From positions 19,107 through 83,106 of the forward strand of contig JAKLIQ010000009.1 of NCBI GenBank assembly GCA_022709525.1: DNA of 64,000 nucleotides. Direction: 5' to 3'. The notes beneath the pieces are model-generated. The model had not been told where the DNA came from, ran no database searches, and was given only the letters and a program-made list of their open reading frames with translations. The DNA comes from Candidatus Omnitrophota bacterium. GTDB taxonomy: Bacteria; Omnitrophota; Omnitrophia; Omnitrophales; Aquincolibacteriaceae. Every line of letters starts with the position of its first letter. Position 1 is the stretch's first letter. A program made the translations under genes and the position numbers. Positions 718 through 28,534 of this stretch are shown in pieces.

Positions 718-1980
718 TCATTCCAGGGCCTCTTCCGCATCCCACGGCTCATCCGTCCCGTCAAAACTGATCTTCGAACCTTGCGGCGGGATGATGTATT
801 TCAATTCGCCTGATTCGCGCAGACCGATCACAGAGCCCTTGGCGATCGCGACTCCCTGCATGCTCTGATCGGAGGCCAAAACGGCATATTCGAGATAGCG
901 GGATTCATAAAAACCGGCTTTGGTCCCTCCCGAACAAAGAATACCGTCGATCTCTTGATCCGCCGCAAGTTCGGCATATTGCAGGTAACCGGATCTGTAA
1001 AATCCCGCGGAGGTTCCCGCCGCGCAGCTGATCCCCTGGATCTTCTGATCCCCGGCAAGGACCGCGTATTGCAATCTTCCGGACTCATAAAAACCGGCCT
1101 TTCCGCCCCGCGCGCAAAAAATACCGTTGATCTCCTGATCTTCCGCGAGTATGGCGTATTTTAATTTTCCCGAAGGATAAAAACCCGTTGTGGACCCGCC
1201 GGAGCAACGAATACCCTGAACCTCTATGGTGGAAGCCAACAAGACCCAGTCGATCTCGCCGGATTCATGGAAACCAACACTCGGGCCTCCGGCGCAAGGC
1301 AGCCCCCGGATCGTGGCCGGCGAAGGAAGGAAAGCGCTTTTGATCCTTCCCGATTCATAAAAAACCATATAAGTGCTTTTGGCGAACGCGATCCCCTCGA
1401 TCCCCGTTCCTTGCGCCAGAGTGCCCGACTGCAATTTTCCGGATTCGTAAAAAACAACGGGGGTTCCTCCGGCTAAAATTATTTCCTGGATCGTTTGATC
1501 TTTACCCAAAACCGCTTGCTTGAGTTTTCCCGATCCAAAAAAGGCCACCTTGCTTCCCGACGCACAAAAGACGCCGTCGAATTCCTGACCCGCTTCGAGC
1601 ATGGCGTGATCAAGGCGGCCAGAATCTTCAAAATAGACCGAGGTTCCTTTTTGGAATTCGACGCCGCCGATCTTCTGGCTGCTGGCAAGATAAGCGTATT
1701 GCATTTTGCCGTCGGGATGGAAATAGACCGTAGCGCCTTGTTGAAAAACCGTTCCCTGAACGAACTGGTCGGCGCCAAGCAGGACATATTGGAGCTCTCC
1801 TTTTTCGGTAAAATGAACGGTGCTACCCGCCGGAAATTCCATGCCCTGAACCGTTTCATTTTTTGAAAGCGACCGTTCTCTGGTCAGAACGCCTGAGGAG
1901 GTCTTGAGCCCCGGACGCAGCCAGACCACAACCGTGACGGCCAAAAGCAGAACGGCGATGATCAGAATTGAACGACGCAA
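718..1980 (-). CDS. membrane-anchored tandem-repeat protein with about 12 repeats of 23 aa (consensus G-x4-FYESGKLxYAVLAxDQxIxGI); MORN/YwqK-like spacing, family not assigned
   Basis: 420-aa ORF with an N-terminal TM/signal anchor MRRSILIIAVLLLAVTVVVWL. The 69-bp DNA periodicity is visible at 900-1900 (recurring ttccggattcataaaaaccgg). It overlaps the upstream DGC gene by 19 nt, so an operon is likely. Confidence 0.6.
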   Translation of the reverse strand: MRRSILIIAVLLLAVTVVVWLRPGLKTSSGVLTRERSLSKNETVQGMEFPAGSTVHFTEKGELQYVLLGADQFVQGTVFQQGATVYFHPDGKMQYAYLASSQKIGGVEFQKGTSVYFEDSGRLDHAMLEAGQEFDGVFCASGSKVAFFGSGKLKQAVLGKDQTIQEIILAGGTPVVFYESGKLQSGTLAQGTGIEGIAFAKSTYMVFYESGRIKSAFLPSPATIRGLPCAGGPSVGFHESGEIDWVLLASTIEVQGIRCSGGSTTGFYPSGKLKYAILAEDQEINGIFCARGGKAGFYESGRLQYAVLAGDQKIQGISCAAGTSAGFYRSGYLQYAELAADQEIDGILCSGGTKAGFYESRYLEYAVLASDQSMQGVAIAKGSVIGLRESGELKYIIPPQGSKISFDGTDEPWDAEEALE

Positions 1981-3524
1981 TTTTTCCCCCTGTCTTTTGC
2001 CTGATAAAGGGCCGTGTCGGCTCGTTTAAGAAAATCCTGCGGGAAGATGTCCTGCGCGATATCATTTTCCGTAAAAGTGGTCACCCCGATACTGACCGTG
2101 ACCTTCATGTTTTTTCCCTGGACTTCCAGGAACATCTCCTCGGAGATCTTTTCTCTCAACCTTTCGGCAAGGGCATAAATACCTTCTTTGTCCGTTTCGG
2201 CCGCGAGGATCGAGAACTCTTCTCCTCCGTAGCGCGCGGCCACGTCCGATTCTCTCAGACATCCCTTGATCACTTCGGACATCTTAACGAGGATCTCATC
2301 GCCCGCCTGGTGCCCGTAGCGATCGTTGAACATCTTGAAATCATCGATATCAAGCATCATCAGCGACAGGCGTGTCCGGTAGCGTTTGGCCCGGTAGATC
2401 TCGGCCCTCAAGGTCTCGAAGAAATAAGTGTGCGTGTAAAGATGGGTCAATTCGTCCGTGATGGCCCTCTCCCGCTGGATCTCCAGCTCCGTTGTCATTT
2501 TGTCAAAGGACGCTGCAAGCTCGCCGATCTCGTCGTTCCGCCGGAGGTTGATCTTATGGCCGAGATTGCCTTCACTGATGATCTTGGTGCCGAGAAGCAA
2601 TTTCTTGACCGGAACCAGCATGCTATTGGCAAGAAGCAGGCCGATCACGATGGCGATCAAAACGCTGACGGCAAGCAGCAGGAATGATTGTTTTTTCATT
2701 TTTTCGACGCCGTAAAGGGCTTCCGCGGCGGGTTGCTTGATGACGACCGCCCCCATGATCTTGCCTTCGAGAGGCAGGTAGGCGTAAAGATCGTTACGGA
2801 GGTGGACGCTCCCGGTCTTACCTTTCAGGGCCGATCTCACGGCCTCATCCTGCCAAAGACCTCCCGCCTGAACCCCGCCGGTCCGATAAATAAGACCGCC
2901 CTTTTTATCGGTGACAACCACAACGCCATCCGACCCGACCCGTGTCTGGTCGAGTATGGGCCACAGACTCTTTAATTTCACCTCGGTCACCAGAACCCCG
3001 ATCCTTTTTTTGAAGTTATCCCGGTCGAAGATCGGGGAAGCGATCGTGATGAGCGGGTCACCGGTTTTTGAAAAAAAGACATCCGAAAGATAGCTTTTAC
3101 TTTTGGATCTGAGAAAGGCCTCTGTTTGCGAAAGGTCTTTATTCTGCTCCTGGGGGTTTCTTGAAGCTATCACAACCCCTGCCTCGTTCAGCACCGCGAC
3201 AGGGTCGAGCATCTCATGCTCGGAAACAACCTCGTAAACCAGCTTGTCGATCTGGGAAAGGTCAAGATCCTTGATTGCCGGCGTCAGCGTCATAAGTTCC
3301 ACGGAGCTTTGCGCCTGCCGTACGAAATTGTTGATCTTGTCCCTGACATTCTCGCAAGCGGCGAGGTTTTTCTTCAAAATGGCGTCGACGAGAGCCCTTT
3401 GACTTTGGTAGATAAGAATGGATCCGCTTAGAAAGGTGGCGGTGGCGACCAACAGAATAAAAATGGCTGTGATTTTGAAGTGAATGCTCGAAAAAAAACC
3501 GACCCGTTGAGCTGCTTTCTTCAT
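1962..3524 (-). CDS. sensor diguanylate cyclase (N-terminal TM, periplasmic Cache-like sensor, HAMP, GGDEF)
   Basis: GGDEF active-site motif ARYGGEEFSIL. Two TM segments flank a periplasmic domain. RBS AAAGGAG lies 7 nt before the ATG at 3524; the track start at 3545 lies inside the RBS. Confidence 0.85.
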   Translation of the reverse strand: MKKAAQRVGFFSSIHFKITAIFILLVATATFLSGSILIYQSQRALVDAILKKNLAACENVRDKINNFVRQAQSSVELMTLTPAIKDLDLSQIDKLVYEVVSEHEMLDPVAVLNEAGVVIASRNPQEQNKDLSQTEAFLRSKSKSYLSDVFFSKTGDPLITIASPIFDRDNFKKRIGVLVTEVKLKSLWPILDQTRVGSDGVVVVTDKKGGLIYRTGGVQAGGLWQDEAVRSALKGKTGSVHLRNDLYAYLPLEGKIMGAVVIKQPAAEALYGVEKMKKQSFLLLAVSVLIAIVIGLLLANSMLVPVKKLLLGTKIISEGNLGHKINLRRNDEIGELAASFDKMTTELEIQRERAITDELTHLYTHTYFFETLRAEIYRAKRYRTRLSLMMLDIDDFKMFNDRYGHQAGDEILVKMSEVIKGCLRESDVAARYGGEEFSILAAETDKEGIYALAERLREKISEEMFLEVQGKNMKVTVSIGVTTFTENDIAQDIFPQDFLKRADTALYQAKDRGKNCVVQF

Positions 3525-3826: not shown

Positions 3827-4156
3827 TTATTTCTTTTCCTCGAGCTCCTTAGCCCCTTCCTCAAGCCCTTCTGAAGTGTCTTGCCCGAGGGTAGCGACGG
3901 GTTTTAAAATGCTCCCCGTCCCTTCAACGACCGTTTTGCCGATGTCGACTACCGCAGAACCGGTATTGACGACCGTTTGGCCGACAGCCTTACCCGCGGC
4001 GACAGTTCCTTTGCCGATACCTTCACCGGTCTTTTTGGAAGCGTCCACGAACTTATCGCCGGTTTCTTTCGCCGTTGGATTTTCCGCCATGACCGCGCTG
4101 CAAGCAAAACAAAAGACCATTGCTACTGCTAAAACCACACTTAAAAACTTGCTCAT
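3827..4156 (-). CDS. small secreted protein (Gly/Thr/Lys-rich, 109 aa), hypothetical
   Basis: Signal peptide MSKFLSVVLAVAMVFCFACSAVMA. Strong RBS AAGGAGG 7 nt upstream of the ATG at 4156. The track ORF 3827..4192 starts upstream of the RBS. Confidence 0.6.
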   Translation of the reverse strand: MSKFLSVVLAVAMVFCFACSAVMAENPTAKETGDKFVDASKKTGEGIGKGTVAAGKAVGQTVVNTGSAVVDIGKTVVEGTGSILKPVATLGQDTSEGLEEGAKELEEKK

Positions 4157-4326
4157 AGGTAATTCCTCCTTCATTTTGACTTCCCCAATCAAGGGGCACG
4201 TATTTTACACCAAATACCCGGCTTCCGCTATTGAAATTAATGCTTCTCATTTTTTCTAACTTATTCTATTTCAACGAGTTAGAACGAAAGATCCTTATCC
4301 TGTGAGGATGCAAGGAGGGTTTAGGC

Positions 4327-4823: not shown

Positions 4824-4897
4824 TCGGGGCGAGAGGATTTGAACCTCCGACCGCACGCACCCCAAGCGTGTGCGCTACCAGGCTGCGCTACGCCCCG
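4824..4897 (-). tRNA. tRNA-Pro (anticodon GGG)
   Basis: Cloverleaf built by hand: acceptor CGGGGCG/CGCCCCG, D-arm AGCGCAGCCTGGTAGCGC, anticodon stem CACGC/GCGTG with loop TTGGGGT, T-arm GGAGGTTCAAATCCTCT. No encoded CCA. Confidence 0.85.
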
Positions 4898-5166: not shown

Positions 5167-5628
5167 TTATTTCGATAGAACGGAGTCGAGACTGAACGGA
5201 TGTTCGTTCAGAAGGGCAAGGCGGATACCGATCGCGGTGTTGCAGATATCCATGATAAGGACTTGATAGGGTTGCATATGGAGGATGCTTCCCTCCCCAA
5301 AACAGCCGCAGTCAGCCGGGAGGCCGCCCGTCACAAGACGGGTCAACAAGATCAACAGCACAAAACTCCAGGACATGGCCGCCAATACCAGCGCGCTGAT
5401 CCGGCACTGATAGCCGACGATCATGAAGACGCCAAAGAAAAATTCGACCCATGGAATCACATGAGCCAGAAAAGGAATAAAAATATACGGGATGATCTCA
5501 TAAGCGGCCATGCCCCCTTGAAAATTTTCAACCGGCTCCATGAGCTTGGTGAACCCGGAATACGCGAAGATAAGCCCGATGAAAATCCGTCCCAGAAAAA
5601 GGATCTTGTAATTTTTCTCTGATGTCAT
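5167..5628 (-). CDS. DoxX/MauE-like integral membrane protein with CGCFG cysteine pair
   Basis: Four predicted TM helices, DoxX-like composition. The start overlaps the stop of the upstream DsbA-like gene (ATGA). Confidence 0.6.
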   Translation of the reverse strand: MTSEKNYKILFLGRIFIGLIFAYSGFTKLMEPVENFQGGMAAYEIIPYIFIPFLAHVIPWVEFFFGVFMIVGYQCRISALVLAAMSWSFVLLILLTRLVTGGLPADCGCFGEGSILHMQPYQVLIMDICNTAIGIRLALLNEHPFSLDSVLSK

Positions 5629-6416
5629 GGGGTTTTTTTATCAGATGTTGGTGCTGACGCGGGTGGTGGAGGAATCGCGGGCGGCGCTGGCTCCGGCACA
5701 GGAATAGGCGGCAACCCGAGCGCTTTACGGATCGCGTTCTCGCCCCGCTCCTGCATCTCCCTCGGACCGACAAATCTTTCTTCGCCAAGAAAAAGCGTCG
5801 GCGTGGCATTCACCTGGCGCTGATTTCCCTCTTCTTTTTCCGCATAGATCGCTTTCGTTACCGAAACATCGGACATGCATTTCCCGAACCGGTTCATATC
5901 GGCCCCGAGCTCCCGGGCGTATTGAAACATGATCTCCACGGGCGGCACGATGGAAGGCGCCCACTCGGGCTGTTTTTCATAAAGCTTTTCCTGGTACGGC
6001 CAGAATTTACCCTGGATATGCATGCATTCGGCGGCCTGGTGCGCATAAATGGACCAGCGGTGCGAAGTGAGCGGAAAGTGCTTGAAGGTAAGCTGGATCT
6101 TCCCGGGATATTCCTGGATGATCTTATGCAATTCTTGCTGGGCGACGCGGCAAGAAGGGCATTCGAAATCGCTGTATTCGATGATCTTGATCGGGGCTGT
6201 TGCGGGGCCCTGGGTTTTTGGAGCCGAAAGGTACGCGCCGGCCAAGGAAGGTGCGGGAACCGGCGCCGGCTTGCTCCGCTTCGCAAGCATCACGATACCG
6301 GTCAGGATGATCACGAGCGTCATGCCGGCCAGGACCGAACGAAAGTTCAGCTTTGCCGGCCAAAATCTTTTCTTTGTTTTCTCTTCAAGCTTGGTTGTTT
6401 CCACTTTCGGTCCCAT
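5625..6416 (-). CDS. DsbA-family thiol:disulfide oxidoreductase, membrane-anchored (thioredoxin fold, CPSC active site)
   Basis: IIEYSDFECPSCRVAQQEL motif; N-terminal TM anchor; Pro-rich C-terminal tail. Confidence 0.8.
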   Translation of the reverse strand: MGPKVETTKLEEKTKKRFWPAKLNFRSVLAGMTLVIILTGIVMLAKRSKPAPVPAPSLAGAYLSAPKTQGPATAPIKIIEYSDFECPSCRVAQQELHKIIQEYPGKIQLTFKHFPLTSHRWSIYAHQAAECMHIQGKFWPYQEKLYEKQPEWAPSIVPPVEIMFQYARELGADMNRFGKCMSDVSVTKAIYAEKEEGNQRQVNATPTLFLGEERFVGPREMQERGENAIRKALGLPPIPVPEPAPPAIPPPPASAPTSDKKTP

Positions 6417-28460: not shown

Positions 28461-28534
28461 TGCCGGGGGCCAGGATTGAACTGGCGACCTAGGGCTTATG
28501 AGTCCCTCGCTCTAGCCAACTGAGCTACCCCGGC
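28461..28534 (-). tRNA. tRNA-Met (anticodon CAT; elongator-type acceptor, could alternatively be tRNA-Ile2/lysidine)
   Basis: GCCGGGGTAGCTCAGTTGGCTAGAGCGAGGGACTCATAAGCCCTAGGTCGCCAGTTCAATCCTGGCCCCCGGCA; G1:C72 paired, so it is not the initiator. Confidence 0.85.

Follow-up and report, generated by a model that had tools for sequence, protein, structure and literature searches.

The window analysed here is a 64,000-nucleotide stretch of contig JAKLIQ010000009.1 from a Candidatus Omnitrophota bacterium. Close to its start lies a gene for a 420-residue repeat protein, which belongs to an operon encoding, in order, a dCache-HAMP-GGDEF diguanylate cyclase, the repeat protein, a 1297-residue TolC-like protein, and a 3038-residue synthase resembling FKS1 and BcsA. 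The repeat protein is built from twelve 30-residue units, and its sequence places the family as a long-period relative of the MORN_2/YwqK repeats, with membership at the level of the superfamily. Our preferred reading, to which we would give somewhat less than an even chance, is that this protein acts as a periplasmic scaffold or glycan guide in a glucan export machine controlled by cyclic di-GMP (c-di-GMP). Literature searches did not find the operon described.

The period of the repeats was determined from both the protein and the DNA. BLOSUM62 autocorrelation of the protein is positive at lags of 30, 60, and 90 residues only, reaching +1.87 (40% identity) at lag 30. An earlier note on this DNA had proposed 23-residue repeats visible as a 69-bp DNA period. 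At lag 23 the value falls to −1.26, where shuffled sequences average −0.90 (standard deviation 0.11), and the DNA is 50% identical to itself at lag 90 versus 21.5% at lag 69. The period is therefore 30 residues, or 90 bp; the consensus given with the original proposal itself covers about 28 residues, which contradicts the stated 23. The count of about twelve repeats, on the other hand, was accurate. Residues 43–402 align without gaps as twelve repeats of exactly 30 residues each, and a hidden Markov model (HMM) built from the repeats identified 12 domains in the 718..1980 open reading frame (ORF) and zero elsewhere in the window. Tandem Repeats Finder gave no report on the DNA because the copies are only about 50% identical at that level.

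The consensus of the unit is eIQGIxCAgGtxVGFYESGkLqYAxLAsDQ, with nearly invariant residues at positions G4, G10, F15, G19, and L26. Position 7 had been singled out before as a Cys closing nearly every repeat, which does not hold as a hallmark of the unit, as Cys is present in six of the twelve repeats (residues 139, 229, 259, 289, 319, and 349). The other six carry Phe (four repeats), Leu, or Ile. Read from the alignment, two orthologues have seven Cys each at this position, and across the family it is C in 45% of cases, F in 30%, and L in 12%. We therefore read position 7 as a hydrophobic position that is probably buried, not as a disulfide feature. A disulfide ladder was considered and rejected, given the odd number of Cys in the orthologues and the family-wide frequency of only 45%. 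The C-terminal repeats 8–11 (positions 865–1224, minus strand) are up to 70% identical to one another, far above the N-terminal repeats, which suggests that this end of the array was extended by later duplications that predate the split of the orthologues.

We searched for relatives with an exhaustive HMMER (phmmer) scan of 1.84 billion cluster representatives. This search returned 1190 homologues at E ≤ 1e-3, 458 at E ≤ 1e-10, and 70 at E ≤ 1e-30 (best E 9e-133), corresponding to a family of at least 1190 clusters at 50% identity. A word-indexed homology search with the whole protein gave no match, and it was the exhaustive search, together with a profile of a repeat segment, that recovered the family. 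Self-similarity is strongest at lag 30 in 122 of the top 150 homologues, and the 30-residue unit is therefore a hallmark of the family.

Kinship with MORN_2 is clearer across the family than in the window protein itself. The Pfam MORN_2 model (PF07661) matches the window protein at 27.0 bits (E 3.8e-6), below the 29.6-bit gathering threshold, and its orthologue on contig L010 at 24.8 bits, also below threshold. Forty of the sixty closest homologues match MORN_2 at E ≤ 1e-3, with the closest (P0001) scoring 61 bits, and many matches to the repeat profile already bear a precomputed PF07661 annotation. The two kinds of repeat share the core beta-hairpin motif G-x4-[FY]-Y-x-[SN]-G-x-[LI]. They differ in that the canonical MORN2 unit has 22–23 residues (PMC4222103) and the Pfam model 22 positions, whereas each 30-residue unit can be described as a MORN_2-like hairpin (GFYESGkLqYAxL) followed by an extra short hairpin (DQxIxGIxC, with C or F at the last position). 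The resemblance to MORN/YwqK repeats suggested in the earlier note was thus well founded, on the strength of the homologues, database labels, and structural matches, though the 23-residue spacing from which it was drawn was not.

Other repeat families fit less well. The eukaryotic MORN model PF02493 is absent among matches to the window protein at E ≤ 1; the MORN repeats of junctophilins and MORN1/4 also form a tandem beta-hairpin array with Gly and an aromatic residue at the hairpin turn, but have a 23-residue period and are cytosolic and membrane- or lipid-associated. Choline_bind_3 scores 14.4 bits in the window protein and 17.7 bits in the L010 orthologue, against a cutoff of 27, and with sub-threshold scores and a period of 30 instead of about 20 the protein falls outside the cell-wall and choline-binding repeats (PF01473, PF19127). 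Sequence searches of the PDB returned only noise, including an hnRNP. Among these, a leucine-rich repeat (LRR) assignment was rejected, as its sole match was 3goz at E 0.81 and no Pfam LRR model was hit, and a beta-propeller was likewise set aside, the match to the Vgb lactonase 2qc5 (E 3e-4) being regarded as noise. A confident match to a well-characterised repeat family, which the earlier note had named as a reason to give up its reading, did not appear.

The label attached to some relatives raises the question of whether the protein is a YwqK-type immunity protein (antitoxin) that counters a polymorphic toxin, as COG2849 would have it. Several family members of about 190 residues are named 'antitoxin component YwqK' by JGI, and among the structural matches one bears the annotation YwqK family antitoxin. 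The label was transferred automatically, on the basis of a match at the level of the repeat, and a toxin-like gene of the YwqJ/LXG type adjoins the repeat gene in none of the contigs examined. PADLOC models gave no match, and no NCBIfam model matches the window protein or the seven relatives scanned. The window protein is exported or membrane-anchored, and its gene is embedded in an operon with cyclase, TolC-like, and glucan-synthase genes. We consider an antitoxin role very improbable.

We next turn to predicted structure. An AlphaFold model computed with 94 homologues in the alignment has a predicted local distance difference test (pLDDT) score of 88 and a predicted template modelling score (pTM) of 0.70; a single-sequence run (pLDDT 58) was too poor for use. 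The model starts with a helix at residues 2–21 and a low-confidence linker and continues with four short strands per repeat throughout. It is all-beta apart from the membrane helix and a five-residue C-terminal helix, and confidence is highest in repeats 8–11 (pLDDT 97–98). The predicted fold is a beta-hairpin repeat.

Foldseek comparisons of this model with the PDB matched arrays of hairpin repeats, with E values of 1e-8 to 1e-3 for the choline-binding, CROP, and YG types. The matches include the CROPs of TcsL and TcdA, Rhs/teneurin YD shells, choline-binding domains (2bib, 6jyx, 1gvm), engineered OspA sheets, and the DSR-E dextransucrase; no solved MORN protein is among the top 50. Choline-binding, CROP, and YG repeats (LytA/Pce, TcdA/TcsL, glucansucrase domain V) share with the window protein an aromatic-x3-Gly hairpin motif and form arrays outside the cytoplasm whose ligands are carbohydrates or teichoic acids. 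They differ in their period of about 20 residues (31 for long CROP repeats), and the likeness is local to the hairpin, with TM-scores of 0.22 or less. The local likeness of the model to hairpin repeats that bind carbohydrate or choline is suggestive but weak. In BFVD, which holds predicted viral structures, the best matches are MORN, MORN-variant, and YwqK proteins (E 4e-14 to 1e-6); this is a comparison of a prediction with predictions, and the TM-scores are low.

An identical 420-residue product is called on seven public contigs, where proteins encoded nearby carry the annotation Candidatus Omnitrophota. The ORF and its hydrophobic N-terminal helix agree with the membrane-anchored protein originally proposed. 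This helix spans 18–20 residues, with a Kyte-Doolittle mean of 2.64 over residues 3–21, and no AXA-type cleavage site or lipobox is apparent by eye in the N-terminus, which suggests that the protein stays at the inner membrane. Of 228 family members, 129 have a hydrophobic N-terminus, and the closest paralogues have classical signal peptides. Together, the N-terminal helix and the signal peptides of these paralogues point to export, and the repeat protein would then be periplasmic, held at the inner membrane by a single helix. It has no catalytic signature.

The arrangement of the operon is conserved in relatives of the window. On L010, whose TolC-like protein is 76% identical, the order is cyclase, 424-residue repeat protein, TolC-like protein, 3038-residue synthase, and a gene resembling a membrane-fusion protein (MFP), with the repeat and TolC-like genes overlapping by 4 nt. 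On L011 (74%), the C-terminal end of an upstream gene overlaps the repeat gene by 19 nt, and the 420-residue repeat protein is followed by a 64-residue HTH_17 ORF, the TolC-like gene, and a further gene of which only the start is present. L012, the most distant relative (45%), opens within the final repeats of a repeat protein; HTH_17 comes next, then the TolC-like gene and after it a large gene. The repeat gene thus stays before the TolC-like gene in three further lineages. The 64-residue HTH_17 (excisionase/MerR-like) ORF occurs at L011:1664-1858 and L012:311-505, whereas neither the window nor L010 has it.

These comparisons fit the proposal, made from the window alone, of a triad of cyclase, repeat protein, and TolC-like protein forming a c-di-GMP-linked envelope or secretion module. 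The order of the three genes recurs on L010 and L011, and the pair of repeat and TolC-like genes on L012. The conservation holds for true orthologues only, and the module is a tetrad, its fourth member being the FKS1/BcsA-like glucan synthase encoded outside the window.

The orthologues are 67% and 63% identical to the window protein and keep all 12 repeats without indels, and residues 1–7 are invariant among them. For eleven of the 12 repeats, the best match in L010 is the one with the same index; orthologous repeats are 66% identical and paralogous ones 38%. The ratio of non-synonymous to synonymous substitutions (dN/dS) against the orthologues is 0.10–0.12, and the repeat gene is under strong purifying selection. 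Contig scans found no orthologue among GTDB species representatives, and a scan of JGI metagenomes added one locus only (L013).

One reading that these data address makes the protein a generic adhesive or surface protein of the MORN2 type, exported and co-transcribed with its neighbours but outside their machinery. Bacterial MORN2 proteins are mostly exported and without known function, and in Fusobacterium, where 87% of the members have signal peptides, an adhesin role has been proposed (PMC4222103). Family members also occur in many unrelated contexts. Against this stand the conserved position of the gene, its overlapping or nearly abutting junctions, the invariant number of repeats, the position-specific identity of each repeat, and the strong purifying selection across lineages. 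The lack of an evident cleavage site would also retain the protein at the inner membrane. We regard an adhesive function outside the machinery as improbable.

At L014:2600-9607, the 441-residue paralogue P0179 (42% identity) lies beside a signalling cluster that comprises a kinase, two response regulators, and a dCache_1-HAMP histidine kinase together with a GH5 cellulase. This is a second instance in which a protein of 30-residue repeats adjoins a Cache sensor and an enzyme related to glucan.

The gene upstream of the repeat gene encodes a sensor diguanylate cyclase. Pfam scores are 151.6 bits for GGDEF, 41.5 for HAMP, and 54.7 for dCache_1, and the protein also matches TIGR00254. Its transmembrane (TM) segments lie at residues 21–39 and 288–306, and the translation contains an intact GGEEF motif and a RESD I-site at the canonical spacing. 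ORF coordinates and Pfam matches bear out the 19-nt overlap with an upstream Cache-GGDEF gene that had been noted before, and the same 19-nt overlap is found in L010 and L011. This overlap is a translational coupling of the cyclase and the repeat protein.

Such coupling invites the alternative that the repeat protein partners the cyclase in the periplasm or shares in its sensing, binding its dCache domain, a ligand, or an envelope polymer and tuning c-di-GMP synthesis much as YfiR acts on YfiN. The overlap is kept on every orthologous contig that reaches across this junction, and on L011 the repeat gene still overlaps its upstream gene while the HTH_17 ORF splits it from the TolC-like gene. 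The dCache domain is periplasmic, and the cyclase has weak similarity to the DgcN/YfiN model (127 bits, below the cutoff of 325). The P0179 locus, with its dCache_1-HAMP histidine kinase and cellulase, fits as well. As a functional analogy, the YfiBNR operon also brings a HAMP-GGDEF cyclase that senses the periplasm together with one periplasmic and one outer-membrane protein. It differs in that YfiR is small and non-repeat and YfiB is an OmpA/Pal-like lipoprotein, not TolC-like. A Cache sensor is present in only one of the seven paralogue contexts, a rod with a fixed length of 12 repeats is large for a simple regulator, and gene overlap indicates co-expression, not physical interaction. We also know of no MORN_2-type protein that regulates a cyclase. 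On balance, we find a role as partner of the cyclase unlikely, though it is the main alternative to our preferred reading.

Downstream, the stop of the repeat gene is separated by a 33-nt gap from the next ORF, which starts at position 684. The claim that a TolC-like outer-membrane protein follows at this distance was right as to the gap and the OEP match, but the window holds only a fragment of it. The 228-residue fragment scores 24.1 bits with Pfam OEP (threshold 22) and the full protein on L001 88.3 bits. The full gene is at L001:8684-12577, and its product has 1297 residues on L001 and L002 and 1295 on L003; NCBI names HOW88089.1 (1295 residues, same 90% cluster) 'TolC family protein'. OEP matches five stretches of the full protein. 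Its matches lie in sixths 1, 2, 4, and 5 of the chain, and the L010 orthologue has an OEP match at residues 1096–1281 (sixth 6). At about three times the length of TolC, the sequence suggests about three protomer equivalents fused in one chain. A BLASTP self-comparison detected no internal repeat, and phmmer found no match in the PDB. In a set of 5.8 billion clusters, the protein has just four cluster representatives, all of them in this operon.

The synthase gene follows the TolC-like gene with a 4-nt overlap and encodes 3038 residues (L001:12574 onward; L010:7248-16364). Its product matches Glucan_synthase (PF02364) at 88 bits (cutoff 37.2) over residues 2109–2553 and Glyco_trans_2_3 (PF13632) at 43.8 bits, as well as the solved structures of FKS1 (7xe4, E 9e-11) and BcsA (4p00, E 1e-7). 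There is an N-terminal signal/TM segment, and the next membrane segment occurs only at about residue 1584. Membrane segments flank the transferase domain, and the C-terminal part is membrane-embedded. The operon thus includes a processive, membrane-embedded synthase of the GT2/GT48 type, and as a bacterial glucan synthase it is unusual. We take the roughly 1550 residues between the N-terminal segment and residue 1584 to be periplasmic; a weak GH76-like segment lies within this stretch. A scan of the C-terminal third for c-di-GMP receptor motifs found two isolated RxxxR and no DxSxxG, with other receptor types possible. On L010, an MFP/HlyD-like gene (L010:16685-17251) lies about 320 nt after the synthase gene, with weak matches to BSH_CzcB and HH_MFP_RND and a coiled-coil-like sequence.

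With a synthase in the inner membrane and a TolC-like duct, the repeat protein could also be a non-canonical periplasmic adaptor coupling the two, as AcrA/HlyD-type membrane-fusion proteins do. Its gene is directly before the TolC-like gene (33 nt apart in the window, overlapping by 4 nt in L010), it has an N-terminal membrane anchor as in many adaptors, and its repeat architecture is elongated and of conserved length. The all-beta model lacks an alpha-helical hairpin, however, and HlyD/MFP domains were absent in the Pfam scan of the protein. The predicted coiled coil of the MFP-like gene product on L010, and the HTH_17 gene between the repeat and TolC-like genes on L011 and L012, also count against an adaptor role, which we judge quite unlikely.

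In the scaffold or glycan-guide reading that we prefer, the FKS1/BcsA-type synthase would make glucan processively, and the cyclase would sense the periplasm, supply c-di-GMP locally, and switch the synthase on. The rod of repeats would bind nascent glucan and/or align the periplasmic domain of the synthase with the TolC-like duct, and the single-chain, triple-length TolC-like protein would form that duct in the outer membrane. We infer here both the binding of a glycan or a partner by the repeat protein and the activation of the synthase by c-di-GMP. The repeat protein itself would be non-enzymatic, with a role comparable to that of BcsB or the TPR scaffolds of the Bcs, Pga, Alg, and Pel systems. 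As in those systems, a membrane-anchored and here presumably periplasmic accessory is encoded beside a BcsA-like synthase with c-di-GMP input. The analogy is functional only, with no relation of sequence or fold, and the anchor of the window protein is N-terminal. The system also differs from them in that its outer-membrane part is a TolC-like duct and not a barrel of the BcsC/PgaA type, and in that no PilZ domain was found.

Several observations weigh against a scaffold or guide role. Pfam detects no PilZ domain in the 3038-residue synthase. The repeat gene is coupled more tightly to the cyclase gene than to those of the synthase and the duct, and the HTH_17 gene parts it from the TolC-like gene on L011 and L012. 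A canonical adaptor could bridge the envelope instead, since the MFP-like protein encoded after the synthase on L010 may be what actually serves the TolC-like duct as adaptor. No structure compared gives a TM-score above 0.28 (query-normalised), so the likeness is local only. Finally, family members elsewhere lie in unrelated contexts, so the fold as such carries no specific function. In particular, seven paralogue contexts in other genomes are unrelated to the operon, and the linkage to it therefore belongs to the orthologous group, not to the fold.

A bolder form of this proposal is possible but doubtful. The four genes may encode an undescribed trans-envelope polysaccharide secretion machine in Omnitrophota, in which an FKS1-like synthase whose periplasmic domain has about 1550 residues would work with a pseudo-trimeric TolC duct made of a single chain, a fixed-length rod of twelve 30-residue repeats serving as periplasmic conduit, ruler, or glucan guide, and a dedicated cyclase for local c-di-GMP control. 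If so, a bacterial MORN_2-type repeat protein would for the first time have a concrete function.

The MORN_2/YwqK repeats of bacteria are abundant, belong mostly to exported proteins, and await functional characterisation (PMC4222103). The present work defines a subfamily with a 30-residue period, comprising at least 1190 clusters, which Pfam detects only faintly. One of its orthologous groups is tied to a conserved operon with interpretable partners, which offers an entry point to the function of the repeats. The operon is unusual in itself, pairing a 3038-residue bacterial FKS1-like synthase with a TolC-like protein of apparently three protomer equivalents, and it suggests that uncultured Omnitrophota may make and export a surface glucan under c-di-GMP control. 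The features of the window that belong to the operon are collected in Table 1.

Table 1. Positions in the window of the repeat-protein gene, the parts of its product, and the adjoining genes of the operon.
Feature	Position	Strand	Details
Repeat-protein gene	718..1980	minus	420 codons plus TGA stop, TTG start; from the ORF list
Shine-Dalgarno-like GGGGG	1986..1990	minus	5 nt before the TTG, within the end of the cyclase gene; read from the sequence
N-terminal hydrophobic helix, residues 2–21	1918..1977	minus	Signal anchor or uncleaved signal peptide
Linker, residues 22–42	1855..1917	minus	Conserved LRPxLKxxSxVLxRERSLxxNET (orthologue alignment); pLDDT <50 at residues 22–31
Repeat array, residues 43–402	775..1854	minus	12 in-register 30-residue (90-bp) repeats
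Acidic C-terminal tail, residues 403–420	721..774	minus	Poorly conserved past KISFDGT; pLDDT low at residues 415–420
Sensor diguanylate cyclase, 527 residues	1962..3545	minus	Two TM helices, periplasmic dCache_1, HAMP, GGDEF
Overlap of cyclase and repeat-protein genes	1962..1980	minus	19 nt, stop region of the cyclase gene with start of the repeat-protein gene
TolC-like gene, first 228 codons	1..684	minus	Signal peptide and first OEP repeat; remainder past the window start

Further upstream, about 280 nt before the cyclase gene, positions 3827–4192 (minus) encode a small exported protein of about 115–121 residues, rich in Gly, Thr, Val, and Lys and with a signal peptide. It is called in the same position on L001 and L002 (115 residues) and on L003 and L004 (109 residues), with no Pfam match recorded. 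A scan for promoters and terminators found sites no more numerous than in shuffled sequence. At 5167–6416 (minus), a DsbA-like thioredoxin (Thioredoxin_4/DSBA, 263 residues) overlaps a MauE/DoxX membrane protein (153 residues); the two lie some 3 kb upstream of the operon and may act as a pair in periplasmic disulfide oxidation. At gathering thresholds, the only Rfam matches in the window are two tRNA genes, at 4824–4897 and 28461–28534 (both minus).

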